Assembly (NCBI GenBank): GCA_032128115.1 | Contig: JAQBHB010000002.1 | Span: 5,385 to 69,384, forward strand | Direction of reading: 5' to 3' | DNA length: 64,000 bases | Origin: Deltaproteobacteria bacterium | GTDB lineage: Bacteria > Myxococcota_A > UBA9160 > SMWR01 | Notes under the pieces: generated by a model | The model's input: the letters and a program-made list of their open reading frames with translations, nothing else | Databases searched by the model: none | Told to the model about the DNA's origin: nothing | Program-made: the position numbers and the translations under genes | Shown: one piece after another, positions 5,400 to 55,907 of the stretch | Numbering within the stretch: the first letter of the stretch is position 1 | How the letters are laid out: each line of letters begins with the position of its first letter

Positions 5400-5830
5400 C
5401 GAGCCCTGAGAACCACCAGGGTGGCAGTGCGGTGGGCGCCGTGAAGGTGGCAATAGATGCGGTGGAGCACGCCCCCCTCGAGCGGCGGCAGCTCGATGCG
5501 CGCTTCCTGACCCGCCTCGAGCAGCACCTGGATCTCCGTCCCGTCGATGGCGAAGCCGTGGGGTGCCTCGGTGCCGTTGTAGACCGAGAGCACGTAGGGC
5601 TTGTCGGCGACCACCGCGACGGTGGACGGAATGAAGACATTTTTCCCGCCGACCAGGGCGCTCACGATCTGCACGGTGCTTGCGTCGCTTGTGTACCCGA
5701 CGAGCGGATCCGTGACGTCGATGTTGCTCGTGAGCGAGCAGCCACTGGCCAGCGCCAGCATTGACGCGGCGACGGCCCGGCGGACCGCGCGCGGCCGCAC
5801 CAGAAGAGGAATCTCCGGAATCACCATCAC
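5396..5830 (-). CDS. Cupredoxin-like lipoprotein
   Basis: Signal peptide with a lipobox-like LALASGC. The C-terminal HGF...YCHLHGAH pattern fits a cupredoxin-type copper site. 144 aa. Confidence 0.6.
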   Translation of the reverse strand: MMVIPEIPLLVRPRAVRRAVAASMLALASGCSLTSNIDVTDPLVGYTSDASTVQIVSALVGGKNVFIPSTVAVVADKPYVLSVYNGTEAPHGFAIDGTEIQVLLEAGQEARIELPPLEGGVLHRIYCHLHGAHRTATLVVLRAR

Positions 5831-5931
5831 GCTGCCTTCCTCCTCGTTTCGCAGAACTCCTGGCAGGAGCCACGCTATCCTATGGCGCCTGCTTTTTCAC
5901 GACCTCGACCCTCAATCCCGAGAGGCTCTTC

Positions 5932-10988: not shown

Positions 10989-12914
10989 GTGGGGCAAGGC
11001 AGCGACGGGCGCGTCTGGTGGGGGATCGGCCTCTCGCTGGCGCTGGCGTACACAGCACTCGCCGCGGCCTCGCCCCTGGCGGTGGGCATCTGGCAGGACG
11101 ACGCGATCTACGTGGTGACCGGCAGGGCGCTGGCCGCTGGCGAGGGCTACCGCCACGAAGAACTCGCGAGCCGTCCGCTCCAGACCAAGTACCCCATTCT
11201 GTACCCCGCCGTGCTCGCGCTCTCGTTCCGCGCATCACCGGATTTCCCCGGGAACCGGGCGCTGTGGATGGCGCCCACGGCCCTGTCCGCTGCTGCGTTG
11301 GTGGTGCTGTCGATGCTCTACTGCCGCGCCGCCTTCCGATTTGGCCGCCGCGAGATCCTTGTCCTGAGCGGATTCGCCGCGGCGGCACCGGCCCTGGTGG
11401 CCTTCGTCCGCTACCCGATGAGCGATCTGGTATACGGCGCGCTGGCGGTCGCAGCGCTCGTGTGTCTCGACGTGCGTCGCGAATCGGCGCCGAGCCGGGC
11501 GAGCGCCCTGGGTTGGACGGCGCTGGGAGGGTTGCTGGTGGGCCTGGCCGTGCTGACGCGCAGTATCGGCGTCTCGCTGGCATTCGCGGCCGTGGTCCTG
11601 CCCCTGGTGCAACGGCGCCTGGCCCACGCGGGCGTCGCGGCGCTGGCCCTCGCGGTCTGCGCCGGACCCTGGTGGATCTGGCAGGCCTGGGCAGCGGGCC
11701 AGAATGGCGACCTGCAGTCCGGGTTGCTGGAGGGCAGCGACCTCTCCTACGCCCTCTGGATCCCGCCGAACCTCGGCGAGCCGTTGCGCATCGTCGCCCA
11801 CAACCTGCTGCGAAGCGCGGTCGGCCTGGCGCACTTCCAGCTGGCCTTTCCCCGCGCTTTCGTGGGCTCGGCACTGGCGGGCGACACCACCGCGTGGATG
11901 CACGTGCTGGTGTGGCCCCTGGTGCTGGCGCTGCTCGTCGGCTTCGCGCGCAGCCTACGCCACGGCGTTCGCACCCTGCACGTGTACGCAATCGCCTACG
12001 CCGGCATGGTCCTGGTGTGGCCCTTCGAGCCGTACCGATTCCTGTTGCCCTGGACCCCGTTTCTCCTGGCGTTCCTGGGATGGGGCCTGCTTCTGCCGGG
12101 TCGCGGCCGCCTTCTCGCCGTCGCGGCGGCCGCGACACTCGCCGTGCTGTTTGCGGTGGAGGACGGGCGTCTGCTCGCGTCGAGCGACGAGCGCTACTAC
12201 CTGCGCGAGCGCTTGCCCGGCGTGGATCTCGTCGAGGTCGAAGCGCTCGAGCGCTGGATCGGCGCCAATACACCCGAATCCGCCGTGATCGCCTCGGCGT
12301 GGCCGGCCCGCTTCTACCTCACCACGGGTCGCCGCGGCGTGGTGACCTGGCCCGACCGCGACCCCTACACGCGCTACTACGGTCGGGACCGGAGCACCTG
12401 GACCTTCACCGCCGTCCCGGCGCGATCCGAGACGATTGCCATGGCGCGCGACATGCGAGCCCACTGGCGCGACGCCTGGCAGGGCGCGGGCGTCAGCCAC
12501 TACGTGGAGTCGCGCGACATGCGCGACGCCCTGGTGTTTGCAGCGAGCGTGCGCGGCCCCTCGAAGGCATTCGAGGAGATGTATGAGACACCCGGAGAAG
12601 GCTTCCGCGTCTACCGGATCGATTGGGACGTACAGGACAGTGAAGGCGTTTCAGGCGCCGGCGTGCCGCGTGAGTCCGCGCAGGAACAGGTCGATGGCGT
12701 CGTCGAAGACACGATCCAGCCGGCGACGCCGCAGGCGCCGGCGCTGAGCGGATCGCTCGGTCTGGATGATCCCGTTGGCCAGGGTCCACAGGATGTTGGC
12801 AGTCTCCCAGGGGTCGTAATCGAGAAACACGCCTTCACGGACGCCCTCTTCGATGATCTGGGCCAGCATCCGCAGGTTGCGCTCCCACAGGCAGGTCACC
12901 TGTTCCACCAGTGA
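10989..12914 (+). CDS. Polytopic membrane protein, GT-C/ArnT-PMT-like glycosyltransferase candidate
   Basis: 641-aa ORF. The N-terminal two thirds is strongly hydrophobic, with a first-loop WQDDAIYVV motif (DxxxY-like as in ArnT/PMT), followed by a soluble C-terminal domain. The last ~88 codons are antisense to the TetR gene. Start and end are both uncertain. Confidence 0.55.
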   Translation: MGQGSDGRVWWGIGLSLALAYTALAAASPLAVGIWQDDAIYVVTGRALAAGEGYRHEELASRPLQTKYPILYPAVLALSFRASPDFPGNRALWMAPTALSAAALVVLSMLYCRAAFRFGRREILVLSGFAAAAPALVAFVRYPMSDLVYGALAVAALVCLDVRRESAPSRASALGWTALGGLLVGLAVLTRSIGVSLAFAAVVLPLVQRRLAHAGVAALALAVCAGPWWIWQAWAAGQNGDLQSGLLEGSDLSYALWIPPNLGEPLRIVAHNLLRSAVGLAHFQLAFPRAFVGSALAGDTTAWMHVLVWPLVLALLVGFARSLRHGVRTLHVYAIAYAGMVLVWPFEPYRFLLPWTPFLLAFLGWGLLLPGRGRLLAVAAAATLAVLFAVEDGRLLASSDERYYLRERLPGVDLVEVEALERWIGANTPESAVIASAWPARFYLTTGRRGVVTWPDRDPYTRYYGRDRSTWTFTAVPARSETIAMARDMRAHWRDAWQGAGVSHYVESRDMRDALVFAASVRGPSKAFEEMYETPGEGFRVYRIDWDVQDSEGVSGAGVPRESAQEQVDGVVEDTIQPATPQAPALSGSLGLDDPVGQGPQDVGSLPGVVIEKHAFTDALFDDLGQHPQVALPQAGHLFHQ

Positions 12915-13319
12915 CGCGGGGATCTCGCCGATCACCGACTGGTTCTCGATGGCCCAGAAGATCTGGAAGTAGTCCGGGTTCTCGATGTAATGGCGAAAGT
13001 AGAAACGACTCGCCCGGCGGAGCTTCTCCACGGGCGAGAGCCCCGGACCCAGGGCGCCCTTGAATTTCTCGTCGAAGATCTCGCCATTGTGGCTGAGGAT
13101 GGCCACGTAGAGTTCGGCCTTGCTGTCGAAATAGCGGTAGAGGGTGCCCTTGGCGACGCCGGCCTTGTCGGCCACCTCGTCCAGATTGGCATTCATGAAG
13201 CCGTCGCGGAAGAAGACCTCCTTGGCGGCTTCCAGGATGCGGCGGTGCGACTCGGCCTTCTTCTGCACCCGGCGCTGGCCGCCCGTGGGCAGGGGCGAGC
13301 CGGTTCTAACCTGTACCAC
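12651..13319 (-). CDS. TetR/AcrR family transcriptional regulator, last gene of the FAS-like operon
   Basis: HRRILEAAKEVFFRDGFMNANLDEVADKAGVAKGTLYRYFDSKAELY is the canonical TetR HTH. Its start overlaps the carboxylase stop by 14 nt. Confidence 0.9.
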   Translation of the reverse strand: MVQVRTGSPLPTGGQRRVQKKAESHRRILEAAKEVFFRDGFMNANLDEVADKAGVAKGTLYRYFDSKAELYVAILSHNGEIFDEKFKGALGPGLSPVEKLRRASRFYFRHYIENPDYFQIFWAIENQSVIGEIPASLVEQVTCLWERNLRMLAQIIEEGVREGVFLDYDPWETANILWTLANGIIQTERSAQRRRLRRRRLDRVFDDAIDLFLRGLTRHAGA

Positions 13320-16300
13320 GAACCAGCTCGGCGATCAGGTAGGGCCTCATGTCTTCGGGTTCCACGAGGGTTTCCAGGGAGCCCACCTCGCGGGCTCGCT
13401 CCACAGTGTGAACTCCATCGAACTCCGTGGCCAGCTCCGATTGCTTCTCCAGGTAGACCTTCCTCCAGGTCTTCTCCCACTCCGGGGAAGCGCCGCCACT
13501 CTCGGGGCGCCGGGCCGCCTGGCGTAGCGCCTCGATCCGAGGATCGGAGGCGGTCCGGGCCCGCACCTCGCGTCCCAGCACCACGGCGGCCGCGGGAGCG
13601 CCGCCGATCACCGAGGCGTAGGAGCCGGTCAGGGCCGCCGCGTGGAGGCTCTCGTTGAGCGCACGCGAGAAGACCACGTAGGCGCCGCCGTGGTAGCGGG
13701 ACACCACCAGGAAGAGCAACGGCCCCTCGAAGTTCACCACCGCGCGGGCGATCTCCGCCCCGTATTCGAGCTGCCGCTTGCGCATGGACTCGGGCGAGCC
13801 ATCGAAGCCGGAGAGGTTGGCCAGGATCACCACCGGGCGGTTGCCGCTGGCGGCGTTCAGGGCCCGGGCCACCTTCTTCGAGGACTGGGGGAACAGGGTG
13901 CCGCCCGACCAGGCCGTGGGGCCGTCTGCCGGGCGGTAGCCCGACCGCGGCAGGGTCCGGCTCTCGATGCCGATCAGGCTGACCGGTCGACCGCCCAGGT
14001 GGGTGTCCCAGACGATGGCCGTCTCGGCCCCGGCCCAGCCGCGCCAGCGCTCCAGGAAGCCGCCGTCGTGATCCACCACCGACTGCATCACGGCGCGCAT
14101 GGAGAAGGGTCGTTTGCGGCCCGGGTTGGTGTCGGCATCGAAGATCTCGCCCACGCTCTCGAAGGGATGATCCTCCTCCGACGCACACGCGAATTCCGTC
14201 ACCAGGCGCTGGCTGGGATCGGCGGTGACGTGGGCGCGTGGCCCCTTCTCACCCGGCACCACATAGGTGTAGCGATAGTGCTCGTATAGGGTTCGATAGG
14301 CGTCCACCAGATCGCGGGCGAAGTACTGGGCCTCGCCGTTGGGACCCATCACACGTTCGTAGCCGCCGATCGCCACCTCATCTTCGGCCGACACGGATCC
14401 CGAAGCCTCCAGCGCCGCACGCCCCGTGAGCACCATGGAGGCTCCGGGGGTCATGATGAGGCAGCCCCGGGTGTGTTGGAGCATGGTGGCCAGGGCGTTG
14501 AAGTAGCTCTGGGCGCCCACGTTGACGCCGGCCACGATCACGTGGATCACGCCACCCGATTCGGTAAACGTGATGATGCGGCGGGCCACGCGCGCCGTGG
14601 CGTCCAGGTTCTCGGTGCCGCTGTCCATGGCGATGCGCGCGCCGCTGGACACGGGCACCCACTCCAGCGGCAGGCCGCTCTGCTCCGCCAGGTCGATCGC
14701 GGCCACGATGCGATCGCACTCGGCCGCCGCCAGCGAGCCCATGCTCACCGTGGGGTCCGAGAGCACGAGCACGCGCTGGATACCTTCCGGGACCTTTTCG
14801 GTGGGCGTCGAGAGGATGCCCATCACGATCGAACAGTCGTTCATCCCATAGGGGCGCCCGGCGACGCTCACGGCCGTCGGGTGCCCGCACGTCGGGTCCA
14901 GATCGAACTCCTCGAACTCGCCCGCCGGGAGCTGGCCGGCCTTCTCGTCACGCGCCACGCCCTGACCGCCCGGCGTCCCGGTGAGAAGCCGAACGATCTC
15001 GTAGGGGTAGAGCAGACGCCGGCGCCGGGCCTTCACCACGTTGCGCTCGTAGTCTCGGGCGGGAACCAGGGGATCACTGTGCACGTCGCGCCACGAGAGT
15101 TCCATATGGCTGCCCGTGGGATCGGAAATCACGACCTCGAGGGAACGCGGCGGTCGGGTGGGCTCGGCGCGATCGAGCACGTTCAGGCGCACCACCACCT
15201 TCTCCAGGCCCAGGTGGCGTGTGGCCGGCGCCAGGCGGCGCGCCAGGCGCTGCACCAGGTCGTCGTCCAGGAACAGGCTCGGGGACACGAACAACGCGAT
15301 GCGATTCCACTGCAGACGCCGGCGCGGGTCGCGCAGGCCCAGGTGGTTTCGCAGCGTGCGCGTCGCCTCGAAGAAGGCGCGCTCGAAGGCCGGCACGTGC
15401 AGCTGCGCCTCGTTTCCGGCGTCGGGTGAGCGACCCCGCACATCGGCAAGCACGAAGATGCGTTCGTCTCCGGGCACGTCAGGACTGCCCAGGTGGAAGC
15501 AGACGATTTCGTCCGGCGCCTCGAGCCGCTCCAGATCGAAGGCGCGCAGGCGGTCCAGGTCGATGCGCGCCGCGGTCTCCGGGTGCAGGCCGTGGAGGCC
15601 CGCGATCGGCACGAGGGGTCCCCCGGGACCCATGTAGCTGGAATGAACCGGGCGACCGTCTTCGGGCAGGTGCGACACGGTCAGGCGCTCGGCCGGGAGT
15701 CCGGAGGCCAGCACCGGCGCCAGGCTGTCGCGCAGTTCGGTCTCGTCGGGCACGGGCCCGGGCACCAGAAGCTCGATGGCGTGGACCTGACTGTGCCCCC
15801 GGCTCTGGGCTGCGGCGCGGGCGGCGCGCGACAGGCGCTCGAGCGCCGGAATCATCTCCTCTCGGCTGGCCACGCTGCCAAGCACCGTGCGGCCGTCGTG
15901 CAGGTCGATGCGCTCCACGTGCACCGTGCCAAGCACGCCGGAAGTGTGGCTCTCCAGCGCGGCCGGCGCGTAGAGCCGACACACGTGCGCCGCCACCGCC
16001 ACCGCGCGCCGGCGCGGATCCTCCTCTACCAGCCAACGGCCCGCGCGATCGAAAACGCTCTGGGGCGACGCCGCCAGGTGAACCAGCACGGCGGCGGGCG
16101 GCGGCGTGGGTGCCGACTCGGCGGCGGCCAGCCAGGCCTCCACCTCCTTGGTGGTGCGGCGCGCCTCGTTTTCCAGCTTCGGCCCTTCGAAGATGGCGTA
16201 ACCCGCCTCGATGGCGACGTCCGCCAGGGCGTCGGGCACCAGGCCGCGCATACCGGCGGTGAGCGAGAGCACCTCGGAGAGCGACTCGTCGTCGGACAGG

Positions 16301-18909
16301 TGGATCCCCGATGCGGCCAGCTCGTGGATGCGCCGGATGATTCCCAGGGCCAACCGATGGCGAAGCTCAGGCGACAGCTGCGACGCCAGCAAGCGCAGCA
16401 CCGCGCGTTCGAGGGGATCGTCGTGGCGAAGGCTCGACACCTGGTAGTGGGCGAGTGACCGGCCCAGCATCTCGACGAATTCGGCGGACTGCCCGGGGGT
16501 GCCAGCCGACATGTGGCGCAGCCAGCCGCGGAGCTGCGCGTGATTCGACGGCCCCGGGTTGCCGCCCAGTGCGGCCTGGGGCGCACGCATGAACAGGCGC
16601 GTGACATCGGTGAACAGGCGCAGCTCGTGGCGCATCTCGGCCATCTCCCACCGGAAGGCCTCCGAGAGCCCGTCCGGGAGCGGAGCCTCCAGGAACGCGG
16701 CGAGCTTCTCGCCGCGCTGGGGGTTCACGTCGTAGCCCATCACGATGCGCCGGATCTCGCTGCGAGCGGTGCGGATGGCGGCACGTCGCGCCTCGGTGTC
16801 GGCGCGATCGGCGGCATGAAGATCGGCGATGCCCTCGTTCTTCCGGGAGAAGAACAGATCGAGGGGATCCGGCTCGCTGGGCAGCTCCAGGCGATATTCG
16901 CCCGCCGTGCCATTGGCATCGGCGCTTTCCGCGGCGATCAGCAGGATCAGCTCACCTGCCGCCACCTGCTGGCCGCGAGCCACCACCAGTTCCTTGACGA
17001 CGCCGCTCACCGGCGCATCGAAGCCGATCTCCATCTTCATGGCTTCGAGCAGTCCCAGACATTGACCGGCCTCCACGCGATCGCCGGGCTTGACGTGCAG
17101 CGCGACCACCACCGCCGGCGTACCGGCCCGCACCTGGCCGGCCAGGTCCGTGCCGAAGCGATAGGGGCGCCCCTCCACCTCGACGCGCAGGCCGCGCTCC
17201 GAAACGTCGTGCAGCACGCGCAGGCTGCGTCCCCCCGTCTCCAGGGTGGCGCGGTGATCCCCCTCGGCGCGCAGGGTGGCGGTGACCACGCGACCTTCCA
17301 GATGGATGCGATAACGCCAGGCGCCCACCGCGAAGACTTCGAGGCGGTAGCTCTCGCCCCGGTGCGTGAGATCCACACGCTGCCCCTTGGAAGCCGGCAG
17401 CGAGGCCGGTGACAGGTTGCTGGGATCGGCGAAGAAGCCGCGCCGCGCCGCGTCGCGGGTTCGCTGGTAGGCGAGGATCGACGCGGCCACCAGCGCTTCG
17501 ACCTCGTGCGCACGGGTGCCGGAACGAAGCTCCGGCGAAGCGTCCAGCCACCCGATGTCGAGCTCTGCGGCGCGATACGGCGGGCTCTCCAGCAGGTCGA
17601 TCAGGAAGCCCTTGTTGGAGGCGCCGCCCTCCACCACCAGCTCGAAGTCCGTGAGCGCCGCCACCAGACGCGCTCGCGCCTCATCGCGGGTGTCGCCTGT
17701 GGCGATCACCTTGGCGATCAGGGAGTCGAATTCGGCGGGCACTCGCGAGCCGGCGGCGACCCCCGTGTCCACGCGGATGCGCGGGCCCATGGCCGGATCG
17801 AAACGACCGATCCGCCCCGGCGCCGGCATGAACTCGGATTGCGGATCCTCGGCGCAGACGCGGGCCTCGATGGCGAACATCGGGCGGGGCTTCAGATCGA
17901 GAGGCAGCGCCTCACCTCGAGCGATCCGGATCTGGAGCTGCACCAGATCCACGTTCCAGATCTCCTCGCTGATGCCGTGCTCCACCTGGAGACGCGGATT
18001 CACCTCCAGGAACCAGAATTCGCCCCCCGACACCAGGAACTCCACGGTTCCCACACCGGTGTACGCGATGCTCTCCGCAAGCCGCACGGCCGCCCGCTCG
18101 ATCGACGCCAGCAGGCGCTTCGGCAGGCCGCTGGGAGGCGCCTCCTCGAGGATCTTCTGGTGACGTCGCTGCACCGAGCAGTCGCGACAGCCCAGGGCGA
18201 TCACGTGGCCGTGCTGATCGCCGGCGATCTGCACCTCCACGTGGCGACCGCCGGAGAGCTTCCGCTCCAGCAACAGCGTGGAATCGCCGAAAGCCGACAG
18301 GCCCTCGGCCGAGGCGGAAGCGAACGCGCTTTCGATCTGCTCTTCGCTCTCCACCACCCGCATGCCACGGCCACCGCCGCCGGACGCGGCCTTCAAGATC
18401 ACCGGGAAGCCGATCCTGCGGGCGGCGCGCGCCGCCGACGCCGCATCCGCCACGGCGCCGTCGCTCCACGGAATCACGGGAAGCCCGGCGCGCTCGGCCA
18501 GCTGCTTGCCGCCCACCTTGTCGCCCACCGCGCGCATCACGTCGCCGGTGGGTCCCAGGAAGCGCATGCCTTCGGCCACTACCCGATCCGCGAACCCGGA
18601 ATCCTCGGCGGCGAACCCCCAACCGGGCCACACCGCGTCGGCCCGGACGTCTCGCAGGGTGTGGATCAGGGGCTCGACGTCCAGATAGGCGCGCACCGGA
18701 CCGCGAGGCGCTTCCAGGCGAACGGCGCGATCGGCGTGGCGCACGTACGGAGCCTCGCGGTCCGCGTCCGTATACAGGGCCACGCACTCGAGCGACGAGC
18801 CCTCGAGAGCGCGCAGGGCCTTCACGGCGCGAATACAGCGCATGGCCGCCTCGCCGCGATTCGTGATGGCCAGGCGTTCGATGGCTTGGATCTTCGGACG
18901 TCGGCTCAC
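13306..18909 (-). CDS. Single-chain multidomain acyl-CoA carboxylase (biotin carboxylase - BCCP - long linker - carboxyltransferase), LCC-like
   Basis: 1,867 aa. The N-terminal ATP-grasp biotin carboxylase reads IERLAITNRGEAAMRCIRA...GGGGRGMRVV...EVNPRLQVEH. The biotinyl motif is LEAMKMEIGF (Lys codon at 17035-17037). The C-terminal carboxyltransferase reads VGAQSYFNALATML...ILANLSGFDGSPESMRKRQLEYGAEIARAVVNFEGPLLFLVVSRYHGGAYVVFS. Confidence 0.9.
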   Translation of the reverse strand: MSRRPKIQAIERLAITNRGEAAMRCIRAVKALRALEGSSLECVALYTDADREAPYVRHADRAVRLEAPRGPVRAYLDVEPLIHTLRDVRADAVWPGWGFAAEDSGFADRVVAEGMRFLGPTGDVMRAVGDKVGGKQLAERAGLPVIPWSDGAVADAASAARAARRIGFPVILKAASGGGGRGMRVVESEEQIESAFASASAEGLSAFGDSTLLLERKLSGGRHVEVQIAGDQHGHVIALGCRDCSVQRRHQKILEEAPPSGLPKRLLASIERAAVRLAESIAYTGVGTVEFLVSGGEFWFLEVNPRLQVEHGISEEIWNVDLVQLQIRIARGEALPLDLKPRPMFAIEARVCAEDPQSEFMPAPGRIGRFDPAMGPRIRVDTGVAAGSRVPAEFDSLIAKVIATGDTRDEARARLVAALTDFELVVEGGASNKGFLIDLLESPPYRAAELDIGWLDASPELRSGTRAHEVEALVAASILAYQRTRDAARRGFFADPSNLSPASLPASKGQRVDLTHRGESYRLEVFAVGAWRYRIHLEGRVVTATLRAEGDHRATLETGGRSLRVLHDVSERGLRVEVEGRPYRFGTDLAGQVRAGTPAVVVALHVKPGDRVEAGQCLGLLEAMKMEIGFDAPVSGVVKELVVARGQQVAAGELILLIAAESADANGTAGEYRLELPSEPDPLDLFFSRKNEGIADLHAADRADTEARRAAIRTARSEIRRIVMGYDVNPQRGEKLAAFLEAPLPDGLSEAFRWEMAEMRHELRLFTDVTRLFMRAPQAALGGNPGPSNHAQLRGWLRHMSAGTPGQSAEFVEMLGRSLAHYQVSSLRHDDPLERAVLRLLASQLSPELRHRLALGIIRRIHELAASGIHLSDDESLSEVLSLTAGMRGLVPDALADVAIEAGYAIFEGPKLENEARRTTKEVEAWLAAAESAPTPPPAAVLVHLAASPQSVFDRAGRWLVEEDPRRRAVAVAAHVCRLYAPAALESHTSGVLGTVHVERIDLHDGRTVLGSVASREEMIPALERLSRAARAAAQSRGHSQVHAIELLVPGPVPDETELRDSLAPVLASGLPAERLTVSHLPEDGRPVHSSYMGPGGPLVPIAGLHGLHPETAARIDLDRLRAFDLERLEAPDEIVCFHLGSPDVPGDERIFVLADVRGRSPDAGNEAQLHVPAFERAFFEATRTLRNHLGLRDPRRRLQWNRIALFVSPSLFLDDDLVQRLARRLAPATRHLGLEKVVVRLNVLDRAEPTRPPRSLEVVISDPTGSHMELSWRDVHSDPLVPARDYERNVVKARRRRLLYPYEIVRLLTGTPGGQGVARDEKAGQLPAGEFEEFDLDPTCGHPTAVSVAGRPYGMNDCSIVMGILSTPTEKVPEGIQRVLVLSDPTVSMGSLAAAECDRIVAAIDLAEQSGLPLEWVPVSSGARIAMDSGTENLDATARVARRIITFTESGGVIHVIVAGVNVGAQSYFNALATMLQHTRGCLIMTPGASMVLTGRAALEASGSVSAEDEVAIGGYERVMGPNGEAQYFARDLVDAYRTLYEHYRYTYVVPGEKGPRAHVTADPSQRLVTEFACASEEDHPFESVGEIFDADTNPGRKRPFSMRAVMQSVVDHDGGFLERWRGWAGAETAIVWDTHLGGRPVSLIGIESRTLPRSGYRPADGPTAWSGGTLFPQSSKKVARALNAASGNRPVVILANLSGFDGSPESMRKRQLEYGAEIARAVVNFEGPLLFLVVSRYHGGAYVVFSRALNESLHAAALTGSYASVIGGAPAAAVVLGREVRARTASDPRIEALRQAARRPESGGASPEWEKTWRKVYLEKQSELATEFDGVHTVERAREVGSLETLVEPEDMRPYLIAELVRGTG

Positions 18910-50980: not shown

Positions 50981-51289
50981 TCAGGAGCCGCGGGCGTGCT
51001 CCTCGTTGCGGATGCGGAAATCGTGCGCCGCGAAGGCGAGCGCGAGCACCATCGCCCCCGCGAGCCCGGCTTCTACCCAGCGGCTGGCACCACCGCTTCC
51101 GACGATCGCGAGCTCCAGGACCCTGGTGATGAGGATCATCCCCTCCCCTCCTGCGACGACCAGGGTCAGGTCGCGGGCCCAGCGCGGAGGCGGCTGATCG
51201 GCAGTCTGGCGACGCCGTGCGATCGATACGGCGACCACCACCCCGGCCAGACCCAGCACGACGAACGTGATCATGGAGAAACTAGACAT
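50981..51289 (-). CDS. Small three-TM membrane protein, candidate cognate (immunity-like) partner of the RHS C-terminus
   Basis: Inner ATG of ORF 50981..51475. MSSFSMITFVVLGLAGVVVAVSIARRR...MILITRVLELAIVG...GLAGAMVLALAFAA. The start overlaps the RHS stop by 8 nt. Confidence 0.55.
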   Translation of the reverse strand: MSSFSMITFVVLGLAGVVVAVSIARRRQTADQPPPRWARDLTLVVAGGEGMILITRVLELAIVGSGGASRWVEAGLAGAMVLALAFAAHDFRIRNEEHARGS

Positions 51290-54200
51290 GAAAGCCTCCG
51301 AGGCGTCCGCGCATGCGGCGACTGCAGAGCAGCACCAGGAGGGCCAGCATGATCTCGGGTCCTCCCAGGCCGCAGTAGCTGCCCGAGAATCCGAGTGGAC
51401 CCCCTCCACCCGAGCCGGGCCCGATGTCGGGGCTCGATCCCGATTCCGATCCCAATCCCTCGCCCTGCTCCGCAAGATCGGCCTCGACGGCCCTCCTCAG
51501 GTTGTCGACCGCCAGGACCCAGGCCCCGACTGCGGCCAGCAACACGGGAGTGCCCACCACGGGAGGGGCAAACCAGGCAGCCGCCATGGCGCCAGTGAGG
51601 GCCACCGAGGCGACACCCAGCTCGATCGCGGCCCTTTCCACGGCGGCGCCCGTGTTGGGCTGGGATTGCGCGCCTTCCGGATCCCAGAACCAGATGGGGT
51701 TGCCAAGGGTATAGGCATAGGTGTTTACCCAGTTGAAACGGGCATCGGGGGACAGGAAGCGACCGACGGCGGGATCGTAGACGCGCTCGCCGAGCAGCAT
51801 GACGTCGCCGATCTCGGCGCCGCCGGCGAAGCTCACGCGCTCGGCCTCGCCGCCCACGAGTTCGGCATCGACACCGTACGGGTGGTAGCGGAAATGCTGC
51901 ACGACCCGGCCCTCGGCATCAGTGACGAAGCTCACGTTGCGGCGGAAGTCGAAGTGGCGGTAGCGGGGGTCGTCGGCGCCCAGCCGGATCGAAACCGCGC
52001 CCAGGTCCAGCACACCGGCGTCGGTGACCCGGCCGCCGAAGAGCGTCCACGACTGGACGACGCCCGCGGCCGACCACGAGACCGGCCGTCCCAGCAGATC
52101 CCATCCGAACCCGTCGTCGCCGATGGAGGCGATCCTTCCGTCGGCCGTCCACGTGATTGGCAGGCCATTGCGCGAGGTGACGAACCCGGCCTCGTCATAA
52201 CCGTAGCTGTAGACGGTGTCGGGACCTTCACAATGGGACAGCACCGCCCGGAGCAGGCGGCTTCCCTCGCTGTCGTAGTCGAACTCCCGGCGGTTCCCGC
52301 AGCCGTCGGCATCGGCGTCGACCTGGTTGCCGCGTTCGTCGTAGGCGTAGACACGGTCGGGGTCGACACCGTTGGCGTAGGAGAACACGCGGGGGGCCGC
52401 CGTACCCACGGGACCCAACCGGTAGACTTCATCCGCCACGCGAGTGGCGGCCCCATGAGTCGTGGTGGAACTCGTGATCTCCCAGTACGGGCTGCCCGAC
52501 ACCGGAACCACTCCCTGCCTCGCCAAGGTCGACTCGGCGATCCGGTTTCCCCACGCATCCAGCGTCTCGCTGGCCAGCAGATCGCCGGATTCCACCTCGT
52601 ATTCGAAGGCGCGAACCAGACCGTTCCCGTAGCGGATCTCGCGCAGCTGCCCCGCTGCGAACTCGCGCTCCAGGAGCAGGTTGCCCTGGTGCGTGACCCG
52701 GATCTCCCGGTCGGCGAGATCGTAGCCGCGGGCCACGTCTTCGTCGGGCCGTCCGGGTATCCGCCAGGTCTCGAGCACCACGCGCGAGCGCAGGTCGTAT
52801 TCCACGTCGAGCACCTCGCCAGACGGATACGTGGTGCGCGCGCGCCGACCCGCGAGATCGTATTCGTAGACTTCGCTGCCGCCGCGCACCGAGTCGTAGT
52901 ACTCGCGCAGCTCGCCCCCGACCCAGGTGAAGTGGGCCTCCCCCTCCACGACGCCGTGACGCAGGATGCGCCTCGCCACCACGCGGTCCGCCGCGTCATG
53001 GTCCATCTCGATCCGCATGCCATTGGCGCGCTCCATGGCGGTGGGATTGCCCGAGAGATCGTACTCGAAGTGCGTGTCGCGCCAGACGCCATCGACGATC
53101 TCGCTCAGGCGCTCGAGACGCCCCAGGGCGTCATGCTGCATCTCGTGGTGGGCGCCGCCCGGGCGCGTCACACGCAACACCTTGCCGTCACCGCCTCTGA
53201 CGATGTCCACCGAGCCCGTCGCCGAGATCTCGCCCTCCACGTCTGTGGCGAACAGCCCGATCGAGGCCAGGTTTCCGTCGCCGTCGTGGCCTCGGATTCC
53301 AATACCGCCCTCGACGAGCACGAGAGAATCCCCGAAGCCGCTGGTCTGGTTGCCGGCGGCGTCGAATCCCCGATCCTGGGTGACGTCGGCGCGCATGATT
53401 TCGGTGGGTCGGCCGTTCGCCCCGCGTCCATCGAAGCGGATGCGCACCCCGCTGGGAAGCGTCACGTCCCTCACTTCGCCGTGGTCGTAGGGCGGGAGGC
53501 ACGCCTCCCCGCCCTGGCAGTAGCCCGCCAGGTAGCTGAGGGTGATCTGCTCGCCTTCGCCGTTGCGGGTCCGGAACAGACGTCCGAGTGGTTGGTAGCC
53601 GTGCTCGGACACCAATCCCAGCGAATCGGAGATCTGGCTGCGCGGCGTGGCGAAGGCGTCGAAGGGATTGAGCCCGTGGCGAGCGTAACTCATGTGCACG
53701 ACGTTGCCGGACGGGAGGATCTCGGTCTCGATCTCGTCCTGTTCCCAGGTCCAGCGCGTCACCGCCCCGTTCGGGTCCACGCGGAGCACCGGGTTGCGCC
53801 CTTGCCAGGTGTGGGCCACCACGTCCCCGGTCTCCGCGTTCTCCGACCGCACCAGACGTCGCTCCCGGTCATAGCGCAGATGAATCCGATGACCGCGCGG
53901 CGAGAGCACGATCGTCCGGTAGGTCCCGTCGGAGGCCTCCCCGGTGTAGGCAAACGAGTGGGTCGGGCTGCCTGTCGCCGCATCACCGACTTGCACCACG
54001 CGGGAGATGCGCTTCGAGGCGACCTGATAGGCGTACTCGACGCGCTGGCCTTCGCAGCCGATCTGGGCCACCAGCAGGCCTCCGTCGTATTCGTACCGGG
54101 TGCCGTCGAGACCCGCTTCGATCTCGGCGGGGCTCCGGGCGCGCAGCAATCGGCCGACCGCATCGAATTCGAAGCGGGCAGTGCGCGCGGAGGAGGCGGA

Positions 54201-54842
54201 TTCGATGGACGACACCCCGTGGGTGTCGTACACGACGTGGAAGAGGTCGTCGCAGACCTCGACCCCCTTGTGAGCATCGCACTGACGGATGAGTGTGGTG
54301 CGGGAATCACCCACGAACTCGAGGCGCGGCCACGGTTCGGTCACGCGGCGCAGGACGCGAAGGCGCCCAGCGGCGTCGAACTCGTGGAGGATTCCGCCCT
54401 TCGACTTCAATCGGGTGGCGTCGATCACGACCCAGACCGTGCCGGGGATGACGGCGCCCTCGGGCACGCCCGTCAGGTCGTGGCTTGCGCCCGTGGCGGC
54501 CACGAAGGTCGCTCCGTCGTAGCTCACATCGAACGACCAGAGCCAGCTTCCGGTAGCCGAATTGTAGGCCGCGCCAACGGCAAACTCGCCAAGCAGGGTG
54601 GCCTGGCGGATCCCTTCCCTCGCGACATAGAGATTGCCACCGGCCGCATTCACGAGGCCGCCAGGCACCGGAACCGCCGCGAAACGCTGGTAGTACGGAA
54701 TGCCGGCCGAGGGCGCGAGCGGTGGATTCTCCGTGGGACATCCGAGCGACGCCACGACCAGCACGAGCCAGGGGACGAGCGCAGCCCTTGCGATCCGGAC
54801 GCCGGCCCGAGGCGTGCGAGCGATTCGGGTTGCGTGTCTCAT
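51282..54842 (-). CDS. RHS/YD-repeat lipoprotein with hydrophobic C-terminal region
   Basis: Inner ATG (MRHATRIA...) gives a signal peptide with lipobox-like VASLGC. There are many YD-type repeats (YEYD, YAYD, FEYD...). The RHS core end reads GERVYDPAVGRFLSPD...NTYAYTLGNPIWFWDPEGA, followed by a ~128-aa tail. Confidence 0.85.
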   Translation of the reverse strand: MRHATRIARTPRAGVRIARAALVPWLVLVVASLGCPTENPPLAPSAGIPYYQRFAAVPVPGGLVNAAGGNLYVAREGIRQATLLGEFAVGAAYNSATGSWLWSFDVSYDGATFVAATGASHDLTGVPEGAVIPGTVWVVIDATRLKSKGGILHEFDAAGRLRVLRRVTEPWPRLEFVGDSRTTLIRQCDAHKGVEVCDDLFHVVYDTHGVSSIESASSARTARFEFDAVGRLLRARSPAEIEAGLDGTRYEYDGGLLVAQIGCEGQRVEYAYQVASKRISRVVQVGDAATGSPTHSFAYTGEASDGTYRTIVLSPRGHRIHLRYDRERRLVRSENAETGDVVAHTWQGRNPVLRVDPNGAVTRWTWEQDEIETEILPSGNVVHMSYARHGLNPFDAFATPRSQISDSLGLVSEHGYQPLGRLFRTRNGEGEQITLSYLAGYCQGGEACLPPYDHGEVRDVTLPSGVRIRFDGRGANGRPTEIMRADVTQDRGFDAAGNQTSGFGDSLVLVEGGIGIRGHDGDGNLASIGLFATDVEGEISATGSVDIVRGGDGKVLRVTRPGGAHHEMQHDALGRLERLSEIVDGVWRDTHFEYDLSGNPTAMERANGMRIEMDHDAADRVVARRILRHGVVEGEAHFTWVGGELREYYDSVRGGSEVYEYDLAGRRARTTYPSGEVLDVEYDLRSRVVLETWRIPGRPDEDVARGYDLADREIRVTHQGNLLLEREFAAGQLREIRYGNGLVRAFEYEVESGDLLASETLDAWGNRIAESTLARQGVVPVSGSPYWEITSSTTTHGAATRVADEVYRLGPVGTAAPRVFSYANGVDPDRVYAYDERGNQVDADADGCGNRREFDYDSEGSRLLRAVLSHCEGPDTVYSYGYDEAGFVTSRNGLPITWTADGRIASIGDDGFGWDLLGRPVSWSAAGVVQSWTLFGGRVTDAGVLDLGAVSIRLGADDPRYRHFDFRRNVSFVTDAEGRVVQHFRYHPYGVDAELVGGEAERVSFAGGAEIGDVMLLGERVYDPAVGRFLSPDARFNWVNTYAYTLGNPIWFWDPEGAQSQPNTGAAVERAAIELGVASVALTGAMAAAWFAPPVVGTPVLLAAVGAWVLAVDNLRRAVEADLAEQGEGLGSESGSSPDIGPGSGGGGPLGFSGSYCGLGGPEIMLALLVLLCSRRMRGRLGGFHV

Positions 54843-55190
54843 CTGCGTGTCCTCCGGGGCAACCGGAGTGATGCAGTCACCCCGGGCAGAGCACAGGAGC
54901 AATGTCCGTGCCAGCTGCCGGAGAGCGGAAAGACACGAAATCGGGTGGGAGTTCGATACGCGGATCAGACGCTCACGCCGCGCCGGCGGCCGCTCTGGGC
55001 GCGGGAGAGCGTTCAGCGCCGAAACGACTGCGTCCGCCGCCGGCCGGGAGTGTTCGGCTTCCGGGTTCCCGGGACGCAGCGCAGATCACGACGTGCGGGA
55101 CGACGACAGCGTTCCCGGCGTCGTCGGGTTCTCGCAGCGGCCATCGACTCGAGTTCACGCGACCCGGATTCGCGGTAAGCTGCCGCGCCC

Positions 55191-55907
55191 ATGGAATTCG
55201 AGAGCTGGCAGCAGTTCTACCAGAGCGATCTGCAGGGGTTCACCTCGCTGATCGTCGTGCCGGCTTTCTTCCTGGTCTATCTCCTGGCCGGGCGCGGCCC
55301 GCGCGAACGGGCGGGCGGATCGGACGAGGCGCGTTTCGTCCGGACCTATGCCCTGGTGTTCTGCGCGGAGACGATCCTCGACCCCCTGTTCACGGGTCCG
55401 CTGACGAAGGCCCTCGAGCTCGGGGACACAGCCGCCTCGGCGGTCATGATCCCCTTCGTCCTGCTCGGCGACTTTCGCGTGCTGCTGCCCGTGTTCTTTC
55501 TCGCCCGCGTGGGCGCGGGACACGGGCAACGCGTCGGACGCGCAGCCGGTCTGACGCTTCTGGTGCCGGCCTTCGCCGTCAGCGTCGATGCGGCGATCGG
55601 CTGGCTCCGCCCGGATCTCGAAGCGCAGTTCCTGTGGATCGCCTACGAGCTGGCCTTCCTGGTCCTGGCCCTCGCATTGCGCCACCGCTTCGTCCCGCGC
55701 TGGACTGCCGATCGGCCCGATCTCGGACGTCGCCTGCGCGCACTGCTCGCGTACGCGGCGACCTACTACGCCCTCTGGGCCGCGTCGGATCTGCTGATCT
55801 TCCACGCCGGCGTCGACGCCGGCTGGCTCTTGCGAGCGCTCCCCAACCAGCTCTACTACGCCTTCTGGGTTCCCTTTGCGTACTGGACGCTCTCGCGCGA
55901 GCTCTAG
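55191..55907 (+). CDS. Polytopic integral membrane protein, unknown function
   Basis: 238 aa with about six hydrophobic segments. No recognisable motif. Confidence 0.6.
   Translation: MEFESWQQFYQSDLQGFTSLIVVPAFFLVYLLAGRGPRERAGGSDEARFVRTYALVFCAETILDPLFTGPLTKALELGDTAASAVMIPFVLLGDFRVLLPVFFLARVGAGHGQRVGRAAGLTLLVPAFAVSVDAAIGWLRPDLEAQFLWIAYELAFLVLALALRHRFVPRWTADRPDLGRRLRALLAYAATYYALWAASDLLIFHAGVDAGWLLRALPNQLYYAFWVPFAYWTLSREL

Follow-up and report, generated by a model that had tools for sequence, protein, structure and literature searches.

What does an RHS protein carry in its cocoon when the fragment behind the cleavage site is hydrophobic and ends like a sorted surface protein? The question is raised by an RHS lipoprotein gene in a 64-kb stretch of DNA from an uncultured member of the Myxococcota (assembly GCA_032128115.1, contig JAQBHB010000002.1, positions 5,385 to 69,384), referred to here as the window. 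We favour, with a probability of about 0.5, a reading in which the gene encodes a Sec-exported, lipidated RHS cocoon with a membrane-active hairpin as payload and a cysteine-type C-terminal signal, as a member of a family specific to uncultured Myxococcota. RHS cocoons have hitherto been described as containers of soluble or, rarely, pore-forming toxins deployed via type VI secretion systems (T6SS), Tc or unknown routes; here a Myxococcota RHS family unites a lipoprotein signal, a hydrophobic hairpin payload and, in more than half of its members, a Cys-type tag, and its operons often include genes for dedicated intramembrane proteases.

By all sequence and fold criteria tested, the latter on a predicted structure, the protein belongs to the RHS family. 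It matches the Pfam family RHS_repeat (PF05593, E 1.6e-24) and the NCBIfam models Rhs_assc_core (TIGR03696, E 3.2e-12; 46.8 bits, with a cut-off of 32.5) and YD_repeat_2x (TIGR01643, E 3.9e-08). The listed open reading frame (ORF; 51282-54902, minus strand) reaches upstream to a TTG at 54902, and the start codon is most likely the ATG at 54842, since its 1186-aa product matches a database protein (P0001) that is identical to it and occurs on three metagenome contigs. The N-terminus reads as a lipoprotein signal, with a basic n-region and a hydrophobic h-region leading to a Gly-Cys, lipobox-like end at Cys35; of 84 aligned homologues, 65 share the Cys and 71 have Gly or Ala in the position before it. 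An AlphaFold2 run on the full protein with the 84-sequence family alignment modelled the shell with confidence (per-residue confidence, pLDDT, mostly above 90 over residues 40-1060; mean for the whole model 85.9; predicted template-modelling score, pTM, 0.85), and Foldseek searches with the modelled shell recovered RhsA (7q97, E 3e-43) and Tse5 (8cp6, E 1e-39), as well as Tse15, the bacterial teneurin-like protein TLP (9ifo) and teneurins. In silico, then, the shell is a closed beta-cocoon.

The RHS core ends ...YDPAVGRFLSPDARFNWVNTYAYTLGNPIWFWDPEGA, its final residues being NPIWFWDPEGA with DPEGA at 51669-51683. Three residues of the aspartyl autoprotease motif, D1033, D1054 and G1057, are invariant in 84/84 aligned homologues; the first motif is here SPDARF, not DPxG, and the spacing from Asp to Asp is 21 residues as against 22-23 in published motifs. 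By analogy, the autoproteolytic cut is predicted to fall after A1058. In Tse5 the corresponding aspartates are D1141/D1164 and cleavage falls between L1168 and I1169 (PMC10684867). Because the aspartates are invariant across the aligned family and their Tse5 equivalents are needed to release the C-terminal fragment (PMC10684867), release of a 128-residue fragment (Q1059-V1186, encoded at 51285-51668) is likely here as well.

How is this fragment built? It has three parts: a helix pair, a linker and a tail made of a Cys motif, a transmembrane (TM) helix and an Arg cluster. The two hydrophobic helices (AAIELGVASVALTGAMAAAWFAPPVV and TPVLLAAVGAWVLAV) are joined by a Pro-rich turn, WFAPPVVGTP, and their Kyte-Doolittle means over 15 residues rise to 1.6-2.1, those of the tail to 2.1. 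The linker spans 43 aa, beginning with a charged stretch (DNLRRAVEADLAEQ) and continuing with 29 residues of which Gly, Ser and Pro make up 76%. In the tail, YCGLGGPE (1156-1163) is followed by IMLALLVLLC (1164-1173), a purely hydrophobic run of only 10 residues, and by SRRMRGR (1174-1180), and six further residues, LGGFHV (51285-51302), end the protein. The region is no frame artefact or chance product, since its G+C content at third codon positions is 0.79 in the coding frame, orthologues keep it, and a hydrophobic segment just past the cleavage site is found in 81 of 83 family members. The initial annotation of this DNA was thus right on the lipoprotein signal, on the exact position of DPEGA and on the three-part anatomy. 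A glycine-zipper hairpin was considered and rejected: small-xxx-small pairs number 8 where composition predicts 7.6, and the Pfam glycine-zipper family matches relatives only at E 0.07.

Which known payload does the fragment resemble? Scans with curated models covered the window protein in full, its C-terminal region and its tail (cut in three ways) and, from the family, 44 tails and 10 C-terminal regions. No toxin or sorting domain was recognisable in the C-terminal region by Pfam scans, NCBIfam scans or a PDB sequence search (E<=10), which bears out the earlier statement that it contains no recognisable soluble toxin. A word-indexed search of 5.8 billion proteins with the C-terminal region returned no match, and an exhaustive HMMER search of 1.8 billion representatives returned two orthologous fragments, P0098 and P0099 (~50% identity), and one weak partial match (E 2.7e-05). 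By analogy, the payload is most like Tse5/Tsi5, and the tail most like MYXO-CTERM and GlyGly-CTERM. Tse5 (PA2684), an RHS effector of the Pseudomonas aeruginosa T6SS, is like the window protein an RHS cocoon with a conserved aspartyl autoprotease, and both end in some 130-150 aa of hydrophobic, helical and non-enzymatic sequence, which for the window protein is a prediction. Tse5-CT forms pores, and Tsi5 is a membrane immunity protein with two TM segments (PMC9637101, PMC10684867), comparable to the small integral-membrane protein of 102 aa with at least two predicted TM helices that is the candidate partner here. Unlike Tse5, the window locus has no PAAR-like N-terminus, VgrG or T6SS context, the C-terminal sequences are dissimilar, and the window protein has a Sec/lipoprotein signal and a Cys-TM-Arg tail, Tse5 not having been described with such a tail.

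A second comparison is offered by the bacterial teneurin-like protein BiTLP (PDB 9ifo), which in the available text of PMC13018210 is a YD-shell toxin that depends on Sec and lacks any obvious machine for its delivery, its C-terminal domain being hydrophobic, with a predicted TM region, and permeabilising Escherichia coli when directed to the periplasm. Teneurin-like proteins are frequent in Myxococcota according to the same text, in which no sorting-type tail is reported for them; the window protein differs further in lacking the FN-plug, NHL propeller and adhesion domains, and comprises just a signal peptide, a shell and a short C-terminal region. Hydrophobic RHS payloads are therefore already known, Tse5-CT (PMC9637101, PMC10684867) and BiTLP (PMC13018210) being the precedents, and their description as unusual in the initial annotation was overstated.

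The tail belongs to no curated sorting-signal family. That it might be a true PEP-CTERM (exosortase) or MYXO-CTERM (myxosortase MrtX) member, as first proposed, would suit the host phylum Myxococcota, an invariant Cys as in MYXO-CTERM, a P-E pair as in PEP-CTERM, and the PEP-CTERM-like proteins encoded directly upstream of several relatives. We nevertheless regard such membership as very improbable: the tail alone matches 0 NCBIfam families at E<=10, with both PEP-CTERM (TIGR02595) and MYXO-CTERM (TIGR03901) among those missed, TIGR03901 likewise misses the whole protein and the C-terminal region, the best scores over 44 family tails are E 0.37 for PEP-CTERM and E 8.1 for MYXO-CTERM, and the motif CGLGGPE, with its G-P-E-I context, is neither GCGC nor [VI]PEP. 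The annotation had named the lack of a model match and of a cognate sortase as grounds for abandoning the assignment; neither hidden Markov model (HMM) matches, no sortase gene lies in the window, and over those 64 kb the literal claim falls, while a sorting-type signal at the level of the family stands.

Which signal, then, comes closest? In the myxosortase model the Cys is lipidated by an Lgt-like enzyme, as yet unidentified, and the protein is then cleaved by a CPBP protease (PMC11980579). MYXO-CTERM/MrtX substrates and the window protein have in common the phylum, an N-terminal signal peptide and a tail in which an invariant Cys is followed by a TM helix and an Arg cluster, and in relatives of the window gene an Lgt-like and a CPBP gene adjoin each other beside the substrate gene; the differences are the lack of an HMM match, a CGLGGPE motif that is not of GCGC type, and the lack of a CPBP gene near the window gene. 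With GlyGly-CTERM/rhombosortase, whose one-to-one pairs can be encoded by adjacent genes, the family shares a motif set against a TM helix with basic residues and a dedicated rhomboid, and the rhomboids adjacent to RHS genes match rhombosortase best. In contrast, the tails lack the GlyGly-CTERM signature, that model is not among the matches listed for the 44 family tails, and no rhomboid is found at the window locus.

Is the tail recognised, or does it merely span the membrane? The fragments P0098 and P0099 keep the whole C-terminal architecture at 52% identity, in a locus where identity is 92.5% for the helicase, 74% for the RHS core and 47% for the small downstream protein. Within the C-terminal region the tail is the most conserved part, whereas the hairpin keeps about half of its residues and the linker scarcely any: S[YF]CGLGGPEIML is identical in all three orthologues, and SGS[YF]CGLGGPEIML..LLCSRR is near-unchanged, with 4 synonymous and 3 conservative differences over 24 codons. 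A recognised motif would need such conservation, and a plain membrane anchor would not. It is conceivable that the tail is instead the third membrane helix of a small pore-forming toxin and resembles a sorting signal in architecture only, as the missing HMM match, the lack of an enzyme in the window, the six extra residues past the Arg cluster and the short hydrophobic stretch of 10 residues after the Glu would allow. We think this unlikely, given that motif and helix are the best conserved part of a region whose hairpin retains only about 50%, that 12 tails from C-terminal regions with little else in common share the Cys, the two Gly and the Arg cluster (Cys and both Gly invariant, Glu in 11 of the 12), and that unrelated secreted proteins terminate in the closely related CGLGFE tail, which is paired with a rhomboid in the relative P0085.

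The family gives this conservation a wider setting. There are ~88 homologues of the whole protein at 32-43% identity, all of 1130-1245 aa, each with a short C-terminal region and, where named, all from metagenome-assembled genomes (MAGs) of Myxococcota. On this one scaffold five classes of tail occur (A-E, Table 1), and a Cys-TM-Arg tail ends more than half of the family. Haft (bioRxiv 10.1101/2023.06.07.544157) counts homologues with a different signal or none among the attributes of sorting signals, and classes A-E are an instance of this attribute (criterion 8, the alternative form of which is an enzyme encoded beside the target). The window tail itself lies at the extreme C-terminus and has a TM-like segment and a cluster of 2-5 basic residues (criteria 1, 4 and 5), with a hydrophobic run of 10 residues and six residues beyond the basic ones, and the N-terminal signal peptide (criterion 6) is supported by its sequence features and by family conservation. 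As the annotation had suggested might be checked, paralogous RHS genes do vary at the end: three in one MAG (L010, L011 and L013; MAG_451_bin-01, JAQBGU01) differ in their C-terminal regions and in their partner genes. Each of the three has its own downstream gene for a protein with two TM helices and a PH-like domain (2TM+PH) and its own upstream PEP-CTERM-like gene; at L011 the 2TM+PH gene is present in two tandem copies and the RHS protein ends without a tail. In eight loci (L004 9168-10004, which is the L013 locus; L010 4893-5930; L011 1678-2547; L012 4400-5980; L015 4725-5945; L023; L027; L185 1471-2262) a conserved secreted protein of this PEP-CTERM-like kind, ~260-400 aa long and with an F[IVL]PEP-helix-Arg end, is encoded immediately upstream of the RHS gene; the window locus has none.

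Are there enzymes that might act on these tails? Neighbourhoods were compared at 36 loci with usable flanks, the flanks differing in length and several loci being close relatives. At least one rhomboid, CPBP or Lgt-like gene was present at 13/16 class-A loci and at 1/20 others (Fisher p = 3e-6) or, in an alternative count, at 14/24 loci with a helix-Arg tail and 0/12 without (p = 7e-4), with the reservation that closely related loci do not count as independent. Among the 20, the single locus with such a gene is that of the class-B protein P0085, which has the exact CGLGFE motif and a 584-aa rhomboid overlapping its stop; together with the class-A loci it supplies the adjacent enzyme of Haft's criterion 8, an enzyme that the window locus lacks. 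A Rhomboid-family gene lies directly downstream of the class-A RHS gene in L006, L009, L014, L025, L029, L031 and L036, usually with a 4-nt stop overlap. These proteins match Pfam Rhomboid at E 1e-23 to 1e-28, and their best NCBIfam match, ahead of GlpG, is rhombosortase (E 1e-10 to 1e-16; 40-59 bits, short of the 84-bit cut-off). CPBP/Rce1-like proteases (E 1e-14 to 1e-18) adjoin nine class-A genes and are closest to MrtJ and MrtS, proteases that sort Cys signals, though their scores fall short of the Mrt cut-offs.

Beside the CPBP gene, or in one ORF with it, is encoded an Lgt-like membrane protein with a conserved ARLGC..GCC.G motif and a Pfam LGT match just under the cut-off (E 3.3e-5); the assignment to Lgt is tentative, since a profile comparison with E. 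coli Lgt (5azb) reaches only E 0.083. The Lgt-like/CPBP pairs sit next to an RHS gene with an invariant-Cys tail and are, by their sequence affinities, candidates for the enzyme pair that the myxosortase model postulates. In the literature searched we found no published link between RHS proteins and rhomboid, CPBP or Lgt-like sorting enzymes, no paper uniting Rhs, rhomboid, lipoprotein and Myxococcota and, among the matches listed, none on rhombosortase together with Rhs or YD repeats. Other downstream partners are small proteins that combine two TM helices with a PH-like domain (in L006, L014, L029 and L183 this module forms one protein with the rhomboid), class-C partners with PH and TM parts, and 60-120-aa proteins with two TM helices. 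The 584-aa rhomboid of P0085 (L183 3591-5345) carries a PH-like domain at its N-terminus and a long TPR-like extension at its C-terminus, and overlaps the RHS stop by 4 nt. Downstream of two class-A RHS genes (L007 13504-14277 and L037 9390-10190) are 257-266-aa proteins with several helices and no Rhomboid match that share an LRAR.G.LP.G..RL linker with the PH-rhomboid fusions; these may be degenerate rhomboids.

Tails of this kind are not confined to RHS proteins. Four short non-RHS fragments with a CGLGFE-helix-RRR end were picked up by a profile of the 12 class-B tails, and a scan of metagenome contigs for the exact CGLGFE followed by two Arg codons gave 121 pattern matches, 24 of which also had a hydrophobic stretch (often ..LPPL..), an Arg cluster and a stop within a few residues. 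A CGLGFE-[LV]xxxLPPLxxL-RRRR tail closes at least 23 proteins that are unrelated and apparently secreted, many of them with an acidic double-disulfide repeat (among others at L069, L075, L080, L084, L088, L091, L101, L109, L111, L116, L133, L142, L164, L170 and L173; L111 encodes two in tandem). No NCBIfam model covers these tails, the motif CGLGFE was not found in the literature searched, and CGLGFE-TM-RRRR may be an uncurated sorting signal. No sorting enzyme is encoded beside the CGLGFE-tailed non-RHS proteins, as expected of a one-to-many system. A profile of the 23 non-RHS tails, narrow since the scan demanded the exact hexapeptide, in turn matches the RHS relatives P0061 (38.5 bits), L021, P0088, P0052 and P0085 (17-38 bits). 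CGLGGPE in its exact form was confined, among the sequences seen, to the three RHS orthologues. Membership of the window tail in the CGLGFE class was rejected on its profile score (see below); it may plausibly be a divergent relative.

How might such a protein work? What is shown is the anatomy, the modelled fold, the invariance of the catalytic residues, the pattern of conservation and the neighbouring genes, whereas lipidation, tail cleavage, membrane activity and immunity are inferred. We hypothesize that it would be exported by Sec and lipidated at Cys35 and that its shell would fold in the periplasm, after which the aspartyl autoprotease would cut behind Gly1057-Ala1058 and free the 128-residue fragment. 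This fragment would be non-enzymatic, an Ala/Gly/Val-rich alpha-helical hairpin followed by a flexible linker and a cysteine-type tripartite signal, and the hairpin would act on a membrane much as Tse5-CT and the C-terminal domain of BiTLP do. During export the tail helix would lie N-out/C-in, its cytoplasmic Arg cluster anchoring the C-terminus in the inner membrane, where a sorting enzyme encoded elsewhere in the genome would recognise CGLGGPE at the start of the helix. By analogy with MYXO-CTERM, lipidation and/or cleavage at the motif would then remove the tag or turn it into a lipid anchor. The 102-aa membrane protein encoded downstream, which has no family match, would shield the producer or partner the hairpin, as Tsi5 does for Tse5; judged by that analogy and by its translational coupling, it looks like an immunity partner. 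In the orthologous locus (L061), the contig of one of the two orthologous fragments, the gene order is that of the window: the RHS gene is followed by an 87-aa homologue (47% identity) overlapping its stop and then by the same helicase.

A number of results count against this scheme. A payload cannot easily be both encapsulated and tethered to the membrane, a topological problem that could be circumvented if packaging followed removal of the tail, if the linker left the shell as teneurin C-terminal domains do, or if the fragment were never encapsulated. The structure model, which the annotation had recommended as a check, is confident for the shell and not for the C-terminal region, where pLDDT is 25-39 and helices are drawn at 1065-1081, 1086-1091 and 1105-1124 (all below 40), and AlphaFold2 thus cannot place the hairpin inside or outside the cocoon. 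The C-terminal region has no detectable sequence similarity to solved proteins, Tse5-CT included, and small-xxx-small motifs in the hairpin do not exceed expectation from composition. The CGLGFE profile scores the window tail at -0.4 bits, CGLGGPE aligning only with a one-residue insertion. With seeds from the relatives, no rhomboid, CPBP, Lgt-like or PH-like partner gene was found in the window, and the first three are also missing from the orthologous contig, which is short. The locus, lying among housekeeping genes and syntenic in the orthologue, looks vertically inherited rather than shaped by the cassette swapping that marks polymorphic toxins. The empty curated-model search with the tail and the relatedness of the compared loci, both given above, belong on the same side.

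In a non-toxic alternative, the tail helix would join the helix pair in an inner-membrane anchor of three spans that tethers a periplasmic RHS shell with a structural, adhesive or sensing role, its topology being periplasm-in-out-in with the Arg cluster cytoplasmic and the downstream protein a membrane partner. Such a topology agrees with the positive-inside rule, the architecture is kept in ~88 homologues of uniform length, T6SS, PAAR and VgrG genes are all absent nearby, the syntenic locus is embedded in housekeeping genes, and the core and C-terminal region diverge gradually (74% and 52%) without swapping. We consider the anchor possible and yet on the whole doubtful: both catalytic aspartates are invariant and the shell should be cut off its anchor, the paralogues L010, L011 and L013 differ in C-terminal region and partner, as diversifying toxins typically do, the TM tail is missing from many relatives that keep the hairpin (classes C, D and E), and the dedicated intramembrane proteases beside relatives suggest that the tail is removed.

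If the tags of the family are processed, RHS toxins would be linked to the sortase-like surface anchoring of Gram-negative bacteria, and a T6SS-independent deployment would be suggested. The SitA proteins of Myxococcus, which are not RHS proteins, are polymorphic lipoprotein toxins that travel as outer-membrane lipoproteins via outer-membrane exchange. One might speculate further, and we offer it as an improbable extension, that the payload is released as a C-terminally lipidated, membrane-inserting peptide, that the C[SA]P...PLQ...RRRR and CGLG.E...RRRR signals, a group so far uncurated, are processed by Lgt-like, CPBP and rhombosortase-like rhomboid enzymes, and that cocoon and hairpin are displayed in or on the outer membrane and reach neighbouring cells independently of a T6SS, perhaps when membranes touch or are exchanged. 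Were this true, the Lgt-like/CPBP pairs and fusions would identify the missing lipid transferase of a MYXO-CTERM-type pathway. The compact Lgt-like/CPBP/rhomboid cassettes beside a single substrate in any case make the postulated Cys-lipidation step (PMC11980579) directly testable. The interest lies mostly in these family-level cassettes; for the window locus, where the tag is present and conserved and the enzyme unseen, the claim is weaker.

Table 1. Features of the RHS lipoprotein locus in the window, tail classes of the family and Lgt-like/CPBP genes beside relatives (positions of the last two rows are those of the respective loci).
Feature	Position	Strand	Basis or remark
RHS lipoprotein gene	51282..54842	minus	1186 aa plus stop; RHS family matches and identity to P0001
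Signal peptide, lipobox-like end ...LVLVVASLG-C35	54738..54842	minus	Sequence reading and column conservation
Predicted YD-repeat beta-cocoon shell, residues about 40-1032	51747..54725	minus	AlphaFold2 and Foldseek
C-terminal plug with aspartyl autoprotease motif D1033...D1054-P-E-G1057-A1058	51669..51746	minus	Invariant residues
Hydrophobic helix pair, residues 1071-1096 (helix 1) and 1098-1112 (helix 2)	51507..51632	minus	Sequence and hydropathy
Linker, charged stretch then Gly/Ser/Pro-rich stretch	51378..51506	minus	Least conserved part of the C-terminal region between orthologues
Tripartite tail: YC1157GLGGPE motif, IMLALLVLLC1173, SRRMRGR	51303..51377	minus	Near-identical in orthologues P0098/P0099
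Downstream 102-aa membrane protein, 2-3 TM	50981..51289	minus	ATG overlaps RHS stop by 8 nt; candidate immunity protein or partner
Class A tail: C[SA]P..L...P, helix with conserved P-x-Q and Gly, RRRR			About 44 members
Class B tail (window protein): CG[LM].G.E, helix, Arg cluster			8 members plus orthologue fragments P0098/P0099
Class C tail: ...FRFGAWG...GGGFGGW, without helix			9 members
Class D tail: VCSDDG...CTR...SGW			10 members
Class E tail: TICDDPD..PC/F			7 members
Lgt-like and CPBP, separate genes	L009 4592-5311 and 5293-5925; L025 4506-5255 and about 5460-5870; L031 4549-5298 and 5232-5921; L014 3804-4508 and next ORF		
Lgt-like and CPBP in one ORF	L036 4565-5926; L023 6721-7947		

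The rest of the window adds little to the RHS locus. The 102-aa gene is its sole locus-specific partner, the surrounding genes being housekeeping genes, and no second tail of this kind was found within the 64 kb, Haft's criteria 2 and 7 asking for several in a genome, on proteins otherwise unrelated. The polytopic membrane proteins encoded in the window are an amino-acid permease, a SulP transporter, a MAPEG protein and two without a family match, and none of the membrane proteins matches a sortase-type family. A gene for a 238-aa protein with ~4 TM helices and no Pfam or NCBIfam match (55191-55907, plus strand) is transcribed away from the RHS gene, in divergent orientation, and accompanies it on each of its three contigs. 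A 641-aa protein with ~8 TM helices (10989-12914, plus strand) is likewise without a match in either collection. Finally, a single 1867-aa ORF (13306-18909, minus strand) combines biotin carboxylase, biotin-carrier and carboxyltransferase parts, and thus encodes a one-chain acyl-CoA carboxylase.

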